Positions 8,313 to 10,480 of a stretch of 34,222 nucleotides of DNA are shown here, in pieces. Below the pieces are notes generated by a model. The model did no database searches, was not told the origin of the DNA, and saw only the letters and a program-made list of their open reading frames with translations. The DNA is taken from UHGV virus genome UHGV-0086334. One strand, written 5' to 3'. This DNA comes from a virus. The position numbers and the translations under genes were made by a program. Every line of letters begins with the position of its first letter. The stretch's first letter is position 1.

Positions 8313-9548
8313 TCAGAATTTCCGTTCTTTCCAGCGTTTAACCAACGCGGCCATGTTCAGCGGCCATAATTTAGGCTCAATCACTTTGCCTTCAAACATC
8401 GCGCCGAGCTCAATACCTGGGGCAAAATGTACGGTCATTGTTTCAGGGTTGACGGCCATCAGCTCTGCGTCTAGTAAGTCGTGTATCGTTGGAGTCAACA
8501 ACAGGCCATTATCAGCGCTAAAATTGCCTGAGGTAGCTGGCTCAATGTGCGCCGCTTGCAATCGTTCGCCGTTCTGCCAGCCAGTCACCGCGCAACGGCC
8601 AGCAAAATTATTCCATACCCATTCAACGAACTGCATATGCGCCGTCGCGTCGCGCTGCTCAACGATGCGCTGCGCGGTTCGGGTACTGTGGAGTTTGACA
8701 GGTTGGCCAAGCGCGGGCGCGGGTTTATCTTCCTCCACGACTACCACTACTTCCTGCGACATGATGATTCGATCATCGGCTACCAGTTCCGGAACAACAT
8801 CGGCCAGCTTCTCGGCTTCTCGGATGATTTGCTTTTCTTCCTGATCATCCAGGTACCGCTGCACCAGTTCAATGGTCGTGGTGGCTTCATGCTGGTGTTT
8901 GTGGATATAAAGCTCAACATCACGACGCTGGCTGGCTGGAATGTGTTTTGCCAGAAAATCCTGTAGGACGCGATTATCCAGCTTTGTCGTAACTTTTGAT
9001 GTCATGCTCACAGAATCATACCGTTTCGGTGTTTCCATCTGCGTTGATTGCAGGCCTGGTAATTCGGTGTTGATTTGAGCGGAAACCTTGCGCGGGATGA
9101 TTGTCGGCGTAAATGCTGGCGTGCTGGCCTGGGACGTGCCACGGCGACGGGCATTCTCCCAAAGGGCTTCTGTTTCAGGGTTTTTGCGTGCGCCTGGCTT
9201 TTGCATAGGCATAGTGCGAATCAGCGCTTCCCAGCCCATATTGACCTTCTGTTTGGCCTCGCGGCGTTTATCGGCCAGCGTAGGTTTTGATGGTCGTTTT
9301 TTGGAGAGCGCTTTCTCTGGTTTTAATTTGATGCCGCGCGATAAACCATTTATCAGTGTTGGATGCACTGATAAGGCTTTGGCCAATTGCAAACCGTTTA
9401 AATTGCTGCCATCTGTATAAGCGTACATAAACAAATCCGCCCAGCCATCATGTTGAGGGGTCATACCCACGCTGGTTAAGGCTGCGCGAATCTCTTTTTT
9501 GCGAGCTTTGTCCAAGTTAAATTTTGGGGTTTTATTTCGCTTAGTCAT
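8313..9548 (-). CDS. HNH-family nuclease domain protein
   Basis: 411 aa; C-terminal CAVTGW-x7-LQAAHIEP-x10-NGLLLTPTIHDLLD matches an HNH-type nuclease core; N-terminal 300 aa basic, unassigned. Confidence 0.6.
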   Translation of the reverse strand: MTKRNKTPKFNLDKARKKEIRAALTSVGMTPQHDGWADLFMYAYTDGSNLNGLQLAKALSVHPTLINGLSRGIKLKPEKALSKKRPSKPTLADKRREAKQKVNMGWEALIRTMPMQKPGARKNPETEALWENARRRGTSQASTPAFTPTIIPRKVSAQINTELPGLQSTQMETPKRYDSVSMTSKVTTKLDNRVLQDFLAKHIPASQRRDVELYIHKHQHEATTTIELVQRYLDDQEEKQIIREAEKLADVVPELVADDRIIMSQEVVVVVEEDKPAPALGQPVKLHSTRTAQRIVEQRDATAHMQFVEWVWNNFAGRCAVTGWQNGERLQAAHIEPATSGNFSADNGLLLTPTIHDLLDAELMAVNPETMTVHFAPGIELGAMFEGKVIEPKLWPLNMAALVKRWKERKF

Positions 9549-9628
9549 TTCAGTTCAGCACACTAATAATGGTAACCATGACCGCAGCAAACACGATCCC
9601 CGAAATATTCATTACTGCCATATATTGG

Positions 9629-10480
9629 CTACGATCTAAAATCCAGTTCCATTCCGAAATCAAATCCGGGAGAATATCTCACAGGAGACATAGCACCTTT
9701 TTTTCTGAGATCATCAGGGATCTTCTTACCTAAATAAAGCTGTGTAATCTCAGGAGGTGCAGCCCTACCCCGGAACCCAAAGCGGGAACTTTGCGTAGCT
9801 TCAAATTCATCATCCGCATCCCATGAGGGTATCTCTGGAAAATTCTCACGGGTAGACTTGAGCCACTCATCTGCGATATATACACCCCTCACAATTCCTC
9901 TTACTGTCGCCAGTATGACCTCAGCCTTACGAGCGCGTTCAAGGCTGACACGCCAGCTAAAACGTACAGCATCATAGAGGTCAATATCCTTTGAGCTTCT
10001 GTTAACCGATATCATTAGGGTCTTATGTTGGAACGTAATTGTTTCAGGTTGGTACGTAGCGATTAATTCTTTGATGTGTGCAGCACCGAACTCGTTACTG
10101 CCAGCACCGTTCATGATGTTAGTCAAGCCGGGATAGGCGTCTATGAGAGCTGCTTCAACTTCGTAAGCCGTTTTTTCTTCAGCCATACCGTGCCGATGTA
10201 TAACATGGATAACCTCAAGACCAGCTAATCTGATCTCCCGAAGTTGTTTGAGTTTGTTACTCAGTAACTCATCATCATCATCCACTGCAGCAACCTCACC
10301 ACGCATATGGGCAAAGACACGATTACCTTTCCCTTTCCCTACGTAGAACGTACTGCCATCTCTCGGGTCAATCAGGCGGTAGACATACCAGCCAAGATGT
10401 TCGATTACTCCCGGTGGAAATTCATTAATATCCATATTACAGCACCAAAATTTAACCTTTTCATCACAAAATATACACAA
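9629..10480 (-). CDS. GIY-YIG nuclease domain protein
   Basis: 283 aa; [28 protein letters not shown] gives GIY...YIG...R...H spacing; true start may be the internal Met at 10435. Confidence 0.6.

Follow-up and report, generated by a model that had tools for sequence, protein, structure and literature searches.

The window, a 34,222-nucleotide stretch of viral DNA (UHGV-0086334), carries two adjacent minus-strand nuclease genes whose host element is an Escherichia coli lambdoid prophage. The preliminary description placed the two reading frames, of 411 and 283 aa, within 8313..10480 in a cargo region between the replication and late genes, and each part of this placement holds. Both frames are present on the minus strand, at 8313..9548 (411 aa, ATG) and 9629..10480 (283 aa from a TTG), and they are bracketed by a DnaB-type helicase gene (2306..3697) and the gene for antiterminator Q (16830..17501). 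They sit in a swappable slot of 7.1 kb (7570..14704), with an LprI-family gene on one side and a block of a 213-aa protein, DUF1367 and Q on the other, and this interval is exchanged for unrelated DNA in colinear prophages. The flanks are 96-97% identical to those of E. coli E62, where the interior consists of 4 kb of other genes. The slot of GF43 resembles that of E62, and SK1144 shows a third arrangement of the contents. Among 5426 complete E. coli genomes, the left flank is found in 726 and the full block in 6. This slot provides a clean case of defence-type cargo exchange in a lambdoid prophage. Both nuclease genes run opposite to the plus-strand replication, Q, lysis and terminase genes. 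Orientation against the lytic operons is typical for morons expressed from the lysogen, and the two cassettes are probably lysogen-expressed as well. Rfam identifies no RNA families in positions 6000..16000, and NCBIfam returns nothing meaningful for either nuclease or their neighbours.

Judged by its sequence, the GIY-YIG gene is PD-T4-3/CMoRE, a type IV restriction enzyme, as identified with PADLOC, PDB and PHROG. The protein matches PADLOC model PDLC04031 (PD-T4-3) with E = 6.9e-138 over profile positions 1-254 of 256, phrog_5356 with E = 2e-133, and the CMoRE crystal structures 9U7U and 9U75 with E = 9e-164 and 4e-151. Identity over 258 residues is 93.8% to 9U7U and 86.0% to 9U75. RefSeq names the product only as 'LEM-3-like GIY-YIG domain-containing protein', and a literature search with the RefSeq accessions returned nothing. 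The N-terminal GIY-YIG core that had been recognised earlier is confirmed by Pfam LEM-3_GIY-YIG (PF22945; aa 43-126 of the longer frame, with E = 7.3e-13 and 49 bits, the cut-off being 27). The reading frame is real, but the length of 283 aa is over-extended, because the PADLOC and PHROG matches cover residues 16-271/272 and the RefSeq coding sequence is 807 nt. The true gene encodes 268 aa from an ATG (9629..10435, minus strand); profile and structure matches begin at residue 16, and the 15 codons from the TTG (10436..10480, minus strand) are a spurious extension, a leader that is not coding. A candidate sigma-70-like promoter that would belong to CMoRE itself, TTGTCA-17-TATTTT (10468..10496, minus strand), proposed by consensus match, reaches into this extension. 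Its -35 element overlaps a perfect 12-bp palindrome, TGTCAATTGACA, at 10484..10495, and the whole promoter falls within the cassette common to E. coli UTI89 (window 9624..10565).

Numbered from the ATG at 10435, the N-terminal nuclease domain contains the GIYxY-YIG motif residues Tyr17, Tyr19 and Tyr31, and the acidic autoinhibitory loop corresponds to Asp52-Asp53-Asp54-Asp55-Glu56. The protein is colinear with 9U7U through residue 258, including the C-terminal domain that senses 5hmC and 5ghmC. Tyr128 is equivalent to the published Tyr127, which contacts 5hmC through its main chain, the numbering being shifted by a one-residue insertion. The gene evolves with a dN/dS of 0.06-0.07. PD-T4-3 was reportedly first found in ECOR68 by Vassallo and colleagues in 2022.

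CMoRE is a single-gene type IV restriction enzyme that cleaves DNA containing 5hmC or 5ghmC, spares DNA with C or 5mC, and protects against T2, T4 and T6; the proteins tested are 86-94% identical to that of the window (PMC12923530). The same study provides the biochemistry, phage assays and structures, and describes the GIYxY-YIG motif as well as an inserted loop of negative charge that covers the active site and is autoinhibitory (PMC12923530). The structures are those of the E. coli APEC O1 (PDB 9U7U/9U7Z) and O157:H7 (9U75/9U8D) enzymes. Modification dependence has been confirmed independently (PMC12366544), and PD-T4-3 is active in a native host (bioRxiv 2024.12.20.629700). With 94% identity, the window protein would be expected to share this activity. 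On the model established for its near-identical relatives, a CMoRE tetramer would bind a flipped 5-hydroxymethyl- or glucosyl-hydroxymethyl-cytosine through the C-terminal domain, which would lift the autoinhibition by the acidic loop and allow the GIYxY-YIG domain to cleave. Since cleavage would follow only after modified-cytosine binding relieves autoinhibition, entering T-even DNA would be degraded directly and unmodified host and prophage DNA spared, with need for neither a methylase nor an immunity gene. The long non-nuclease region of this protein, its C-terminal half, which had been considered unassigned, is the known modified-cytosine sensor, and the gene is already explained. The identification predicts that strains carrying the prophage, E24377A, SE11 and relatives, are resistant to T-even phages, which bears on the prediction of host range in phage therapy.

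The second gene (8313..9548, minus strand; phrog_23050) encodes an orphan HNH_2 nuclease of 411 aa, assigned with Pfam and PHROG. The start is correct, with homologues opening on a similar basic N-terminus (MTKRNK, MPKKIK or MAKKKK). The proposed C-terminal HNH core stands: Pfam HNH_2 (PF13391) matches residues 319-367 with E = 2.6e-8 and 34 bits (cut-off 21), spans the profile from 1 to 66 of 66, and matches all 41 aligned homologues as well. The AF2 model places the nuclease domain and its C-terminal extension at residues 291-408 (8325..8678, minus strand), with pLDDT ~96 and a beta-beta-alpha fold formed by strands 331-334 and 348-351 and helix 353-360. Foldseek identifies TagI (6GHS, E = 2.8e-4) and VcaM4I (6YEX, E = 5.6e-4) as the closest structural neighbours of this domain, both with probability 1.00, followed by CBASS Cap5. 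Residues His334, Asn347, His356 and Asp360 align with His224, Asn241, Asp250 and Asp254 of VcaM4I; the first three are invariant and Asp360 is at least 90% conserved among 41 sequences. The active site is thus intact, with the water-activating catalytic His, the structural Asn and the metal ligands all in place. The protein is predicted to be competent for catalysis as a beta-beta-alpha-Me nuclease within the HNH_2 clade. In PADLOC, HNH models of the restriction type match only weakly (E = 7.6e-5 and 0.018). In the PDB sequence search VcaM4I was marginal (E = 0.13), and matches to SOX-9 were discarded as spurious.

The remainder of the HNH protein comprises an N-terminal four-helix domain (aa 8-70; 9339..9527, minus strand) and a middle three-helix domain (aa 192-251; 8796..8975, minus strand), the latter delineated from the predicted structure and motif conservation. 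The middle domain carries the family motif IPASQRR...HKHQ, retained in homologues of 30-40% identity (P0017-19, P0028 and P0042), and is flanked by disordered basic and Pro-rich linkers at residues 146-189 and 255-290. Fold searches with the helical or disordered residues 1-290 gave no significant match and no sensor fold, and a recognisable modified-base sensor (SRA, EVE, PUA or wH) fused to the nuclease was looked for and is absent. For this protein, the earlier view of unassigned non-nuclease domains is upheld. Residues 1-290, which are family-specific, would recognise the target, hold the nuclease off until triggered, or both. No methyltransferase gene is present in the three-gene module or the slot, which is compatible with a type IV sensor-HNH family, though not diagnostic of one.

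Full-length homologues of the HNH protein make up only five clusters among 5.8 billion, and 1451 cluster representatives match the nuclease part only (aa 291-408). About 70 representatives reach E <= 1e-10. Six of the 5426 complete E. coli genomes encode the full-length protein, always within the same full block. Another 235 weak DNA matches in E. coli, nearly all on plasmids, were set aside, as they extend over no more than the nuclease core of another, unrelated HNH protein (271 aa). A truncation of the HNH gene in Citrobacter was likewise dismissed; its upstream 40 codons are intact and the gene caller had picked a late start. In isolated phages the module DNA is unmatched, and protein matches are confined to the HNH-domain level. 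On plasmids only CMoRE-like genes are found, in Klebsiella, at 81% identity. Solitary HNH genes have GmrSD_N, RES, OLD-TOPRIM/AAA_15, Cap4-nuclease, DUF2357 and integrase genes as neighbours. The domain type and this neighbourhood suggest that the HNH protein is probably a further nuclease that acts on its own in defence or exclusion. It is unlikely that the protein has no part in defence and is a toxic or selfish nuclease, a decaying gene or a function that benefits the prophage, for example by breaking down the DNA of the host or of competitors once the prophage is induced. Such a role would fit an N-terminal region with no recognisable sensor, the rarity of the family and the predicted disorder of ~85 of the 411 residues. 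Decay is disfavoured by purifying selection in all segments (dN/dS 0.11-0.50; 0.25 overall against three homologues and 0.15-0.17 in the nuclease domain) and by conservation of the catalytic residues, three of the four being invariant. A lytic-cycle role is disfavoured because the gene lies antisense to the lytic operons and occurs also in non-phage islands beside defence genes. Packaging-associated HNH proteins are typified by HK97 gp74; the window gene does not adjoin the terminase gene, and its product is far larger than such proteins.

The preliminary description left open whether the two proteins are free-standing homing endonucleases or defence nucleases. Defence is correct for the GIY-YIG protein and the best-supported reading for the HNH protein, and homing is not supported for either. 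One or both genes could in principle resemble T4 Seg and Mob and spread by cutting prophages that lack them; free-standing homing endonucleases of phages classically use one of two catalytic folds, GIY-YIG or HNH, and the genes lie in a variable, intergenic-rich part of the phage genome. We regard this as highly improbable. For CMoRE the homing reading is largely refuted by its demonstrated activity in modification-dependent restriction. The HNH protein belongs to the HNH_2 restriction/effector clade, and its homologues occur in non-phage islands beside integrases and defence genes. DNA-binding modules of the homing type are missing from both proteins: Pfam detects only HNH_2 and LEM-3_GIY-YIG, and NUMOD, IENR1 and AP2-type modules are absent. 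Finally, the presence or absence of single genes expected of homing is not seen among the 5426 E. coli genomes, in which colinear prophages differ by the whole 7.1-kb cargo and none by one gene alone.

The junction between the two genes bears on whether they form a pair. The 80 bp that separate the stop codon of CMoRE from the start of HNH are a spacer filled by the stump of a FUSC-like gene (9556..9624, minus strand), recognised by tblastn with the intact gene of locus L005, which matches 9624..9556. The stump corresponds to the 3' end, ~23 codons (aa 130-152), of a 153-aa membrane-protein gene, and because the spacer is a truncated gene, it marks a recombination junction. The FUSC-like gene is intact only in L005 and L006; in L007 and L013-15, longer frameshifted remnants of it lie upstream of HNH. 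At window position 9624, homology to the CMoRE cassette of UTI89 stops. The adjacency of CMoRE and HNH would have arisen by a recombination that truncated the gene formerly upstream of HNH.

On the other side of HNH lies a 186-aa lipoprotein gene (7621..8181, minus strand; lipobox LSGC) that travels with it and has no match in Pfam, PADLOC, NCBIfam or PHROG. The lipoprotein, HNH and CMoRE genes constitute a 3.0-kb mosaic module (7572..10568) that recurs as a unit in Citrobacter freundii (L004, 6862..10066) with ~91% nucleotide identity, at a different prophage position after the tail-fibre genes and dinI. The lipoprotein there is 92% identical in amino acid sequence and occupies the same place downstream of HNH. 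At ~91% identity the E. coli and Citrobacter loci share one origin, and the trio, lipoprotein included, would now move between prophages as a block. Elsewhere the genes downstream of HNH are different. L005 has a 5' remnant of the lipoprotein gene (aa 1-51) and a gene for a secreted repeat protein; in L007 the downstream gene encodes a TolA-like lipoprotein, and in L013/14 the products are RES or large proteins. These genes are non-homologous between loci, and a conserved small partner of HNH was therefore rejected.

A single cooperative multi-gene defence system of CMoRE and HNH, with or without the lipoprotein, would have HNH finish the degradation or cover phages that lose cytosine modification. 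We consider this quite unlikely. It is favoured by the co-orientation of the three genes, by the gap of just 80 bp between CMoRE and HNH, in which no terminator is predicted, and by the retention of the trio as a block at different prophage positions in E. coli and Citrobacter, which leaves room for some cooperation. Against it, CMoRE alone suffices in published assays, and the two genes do not co-occur consistently. CMoRE-like genes are found in 956 of the 5426 complete E. coli genomes, about 950 of them without HNH; the UTI89 ssrA island, for example, carries CMoRE beside a DUF262 gene. Conversely, at least five other contexts (L005, L007, L009, L011 and L013-15) have HNH but lack CMoRE. Moreover, the stump in the spacer argues for a recent illegitimate junction, and a single junction event is documented, as the ~91% identical trio loci have one origin. 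A pairing of the two genes is accordingly not supported; with 956 genomes against 6, each is an independent cassette, and the two meet at a recombination scar.

Taken together, the locus is an ordinary case of prophage defence stacking plus one orphan nuclease. It is likely that two independently acquired, lysogen-expressed nuclease cassettes are stacked in a moron/defence slot and constitute neither a two-gene system nor homing endonucleases. More tentatively, the HNH protein may found an undescribed single-gene family of anti-phage or anti-plasmid nucleases, in which the N-terminal region is a new sensor gating an HNH_2 effector, stacked with CMoRE against phages that escape hmC restriction; under this possible but doubtful reading, the sensor would detect DNA modification, DNA structure or a phage protein. 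The value of the locus is mostly one of annotation, the GIY-YIG gene being an almost identical allele of a type IV restriction enzyme whose structure has been solved. The orphan HNH gene is a cheap candidate for phage challenge, as a single gene of 1.2 kb with clear catalytic residues.

T4 Seg (GIY-YIG) and Mob (HNH) belong to the same catalytic superfamilies as the window proteins and are likewise phage-borne and located between unrelated genes. The window genes differ in belonging to other subfamilies (LEM-3-like/CMoRE and HNH_2), in lacking NUMOD/IENR-type modules and single-gene indel polymorphism, and in that the function of CMoRE is proven as restriction.

The HNH_2 clade is used by the type IV restriction enzymes TagI and VcaM4I and by CBASS Cap5. 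TagI (SRA-HNH) and VcaM4I (EVE-HNH), the best structural matches of the window HNH domain, share with it the signature CxVTG...AxHI.P...NGLLL...H/D..fD, the C-terminal position of the nuclease, equivalent catalytic positions and a helix before the nuclease core. In VcaM4I the linker helix keeps the nuclease off until triggered, the analogy that suggests such a role for HNH residues 1-290. However, identity in the nuclease domain is only ~21%, and in place of an SRA, EVE or PUA beta-barrel the window protein has 290 N-terminal residues that are all-helical and disordered. Cap5 (8FMH, E ~0.04), a SAVED-HNH defence effector of the HNH_2 type, is the next, weaker structural match; the window protein lacks a SAVED region, and its gene has neither a cyclase gene nor any other component of CBASS nearby.

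The GIY-YIG protein resembles the CMoRE enzymes 9U7U and 9U75 in its GIYxY-YIG motif, in having an acidic loop and in its sensor domain. The loop has one more Asp (DDDDE) and the C-terminal tail is 10 residues longer. As for the known enzymes, the gene is single, has its own upstream region and lies on prophage or island DNA; the window copy is distinguished by its junction to an HNH cassette and by its place in a lambdoid prophage, in the slot from replication to Q.

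Database searches place two co-oriented ORFs on the minus strand of the accessory block, at 8313..9548 (411 aa, ATG start) and 9629..10480 (283 aa, TTG start), each with the nuclease core attributed to it in the preliminary description. In the 411-aa protein, Pfam HNH_2 (PF13391) matches residues 319-367 (E = 2.6e-8), and the LEM-3-like GIY-YIG family matches residues 43-126 of the 283-aa frame (E = 7.3e-13), both above the curated thresholds. The 283-aa frame exists, but its 5' end is over-extended. All profile and structure matches begin at residue 16, the RefSeq annotation in the E24377A prophage (99% identical) is 807 nt long, and the extension contains a promoter-like site (TTGTCA-17-TATTTT, 10496..10468); the gene therefore spans 9629..10435 and encodes 268 residues. 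A perfect 12-bp palindrome, TGTCAATTGACA (10484..10495, minus strand), overlaps the -35 element of this candidate promoter. It lies within the cassette common to the window and UTI89, and could be an operator.

Judged by its sequence, the GIY-YIG gene is CMoRE, also named PD-T4-3. The PADLOC PD-T4-3 model matches the protein end to end (E = 6.9e-138), and alignment over 258 residues yields 93.8% identity to the E. coli APEC O1 enzyme (crystal 9U7U, E = 9e-164) and 86.0% to the O157:H7 enzyme (crystal 9U75). CMoRE is a single-gene system characterised by Liu et al. (Nat Commun 2026, PMC12923530). It is a tetramer with a GIYxY-YIG motif (Y17/Y19/Y31), an autoinhibitory acidic loop and a C-terminal domain of novel fold that binds 5hmC; it cleaves DNA with 5hmC or 5ghmC, not C or 5mC DNA, and reduces the plating of T2, T4 and T6 about 10^5-fold, acting through direct defence rather than abortive infection (PMC12923530). 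Independent work found modification dependence in a distant homologue, together with some activity on Mu DNA (PMC12366544), and PD-T4-3/CMoRE activity has been reported in a native clinical host (bioRxiv 2024.12.20.629700). Strong purifying selection acts on the window gene (dN/dS 0.06-0.07). Its product retains Y17, Y19 and Y31, carries an acidic loop with one extra Asp (DDDDE, residues 52-56) and has Y128 as the counterpart of published Y127. With these features all present, and given the literature, the gene is already known, and its non-nuclease region, previously listed as unassigned, is the published 5hmC-binding domain. By the published mechanism, the protein would cleave DNA in a 5hmC/5ghmC-dependent manner and defend against T-even phages. 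The earlier proposal of defence nuclease effectors thus holds for CMoRE; for the HNH gene such a role is putative.

The window is a lambdoid prophage of E. coli, 99.2% identical to the one that E24377A and SE11 carry at the mtfA/tRNA-Ser locus. In E24377A the IS21-family element ISEc62 splits the portal gene (31302..34500 of that locus), and this copy is therefore probably defective. On the plus strand, the cargo is preceded by genes for repressor/Cro, replication and a DnaB-type helicase and followed by the DUF1367/DUF1364/Q, lysis and terminase genes. The HNH and CMoRE genes are antisense to the lytic operons and are presumably expressed from the lysogen. Their placement in a cargo region is borne out by alignment with the colinear E62 prophage: the flanks are 96-97% identical, to 7569 on the left and from 14705 on the right, and the 7.1 kb between them is replaced by 4 kb of unrelated genes, whose products are hypothetical proteins, an ImmA/IrrE pair and a different GIY-YIG protein of 221 aa. 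The 221-aa protein and the hypothetical-protein/ImmA-IrrE metallopeptidase pair (14198..14863 and 15698..16801 of the E62 locus) also occupy the slot in GF43, arranged as in E62, and in SK1144, which represents a third type. GIY-YIG nucleases have thus been captured by this slot more than once. Its conserved left border comprises an ORF6N-domain gene (5273..6067, plus strand; weak PADLOC matches to candidate system PDC-S05, E about 3e-6) and the adjoining gene for a 307-aa LprI-family, lysozyme-inhibitor-like lipoprotein (6245..7168, minus strand). Of 5426 complete E. coli genomes, 726 have this flank and only 6 the window's cargo, which marks both nuclease genes as accessory cargo of a slot whose contents are exchanged. 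The slot remainder (10569..14704) is markedly AT-rich: GC is 32-37% at around 10.5-13.5 kb, compared with about 50% in the prophage. Among its products are a 459-aa protein (10761..12140, plus strand) with no match in Pfam, PADLOC, NCBIfam or PHROGs, a 220-aa protein (12464..13126, minus strand) with a weak 7TM-like match, and a 259-aa protein (13605..14384, minus strand) with no match; all three genes may have defence or moron functions that have so far gone unrecognised.

CMoRE and the HNH gene are independent cassettes and do not form a pair. CMoRE-like genes occur in 956 of the 5426 E. coli genomes, the full-length HNH gene in 6. In UTI89 the CMoRE cassette (89% identity to window 9624..10565) is solitary, at the ssrA island and next to a DUF262 gene. 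An HNH homologue without CMoRE occupies the replication-to-Q slot of another lambdoid prophage (L007), and solitary homologues are also found in islands with GmrSD_N, RES, OLD-type TOPRIM/AAA_15, Cap4-nuclease, DUF2357 and integrase genes; no constant partner gene of HNH emerged across its homologues. An 80-bp spacer separates the stop codon of CMoRE from the HNH start codon, and it holds a stump (9556..9624) of a gene for a FUSC-like 153-aa membrane protein, of which about the final 23 codons are left. Among the HNH-bearing loci, this gene is intact upstream of HNH in L005 and L006 only, and L007 and L013-15 keep longer, frameshifted stumps. Homology to the UTI89 cassette stops at window 9624, which, together with the stump, identifies the CMoRE-HNH adjacency as a recombination junction of two independent cassettes. 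In L005, a metagenomic relative, the intact FUSC-like gene (7538..7999) ends one base before the HNH gene, suggesting an operon there, and a secreted 132-aa GxTTY-repeat protein (9403..9801) is encoded after HNH.

In the window, both genes share a block (7572..10568) with a lipoprotein gene (7621..8181). A Citrobacter freundii prophage carries the same trio (about 91% nucleotide identity), with HNH at full length, at another position, after tail-fibre genes and dinI; once formed, the block has moved as a unit. A 5' remnant of the lipoprotein gene persists downstream of HNH in L005, and the HNH-lipoprotein linkage thus predates the CMoRE junction.

Free-standing homing endonucleases had been offered as the other explanation, with presence or absence of each gene between colinear prophages as the signature. 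No colinear genomes differing by just one of the two genes were found among the 5426 complete E. coli genomes, Pfam detects no homing-type DNA-binding modules in either protein, and the proven activity of CMoRE is a different one; the homing reading is not supported. The locus is an ordinary case of a prophage hotspot in which defence cargo has been stacked, and its interest is confined to the orphan HNH family.

The full-length HNH family is small, with five clusters at 59-90% identity among 5.8 billion proteins, and falls in the function-unknown group phrog_23050. When 1.84 billion representatives were scanned exhaustively with HMMER, there were 1451 matches, nearly all limited to residues about 290-408; a few, at 30-40% identity, reach back to about residue 150-200. 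A 271-aa HNH protein on plasmid pMRGN207 (5911..6726 of that locus), which adjoins a HipA-family toxin-antitoxin pair, has only the nuclease core in common, where about 120-220 nt align at 66-71% nucleotide identity; it is widespread on large resistance plasmids, and about 230 further large plasmids of E. coli carry it. The AlphaFold2 model, built from a 41-sequence alignment, features a four-helix domain (residues 8-70, pLDDT about 95), two long helices of lower confidence (91-142), a disordered basic/Pro-rich segment (146-189, low confidence), a three-helix domain with the conserved motif IPASQRR...HKHQ (192-251, pLDDT about 90), a disordered linker (255-290, low confidence) and the nuclease domain (295-408, pLDDT about 96). 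The chances are about even that the N-terminal region provides recognition and/or autoinhibition.

Foldseek against the PDB identifies the type IV enzymes TagI (SRA-HNH, E = 2.8e-4) and VcaM4I (EVE-HNH, E = 5.6e-4) as the closest structural neighbours of the nuclease domain, followed by CBASS Cap5. The mutagenesis-validated VcaM4I active site H224/N241/D250/D254 (PMC7897488) maps onto H334/N347/H356/D360, of which the first three are invariant in the 41 sequences and D360 is at least 90% conserved. For the gene as a whole dN/dS is 0.25, and for the nuclease domain alone it is 0.15-0.17. As read from the alignment, the HNH_2 active site is intact, and we conclude that the protein is a predicted functional nuclease; we further infer that it serves as a stand-alone defence or exclusion nuclease. 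CMoRE is already fully explained, and the HNH protein adds a new member, as yet uncharacterised, to a known kind of nuclease effector.
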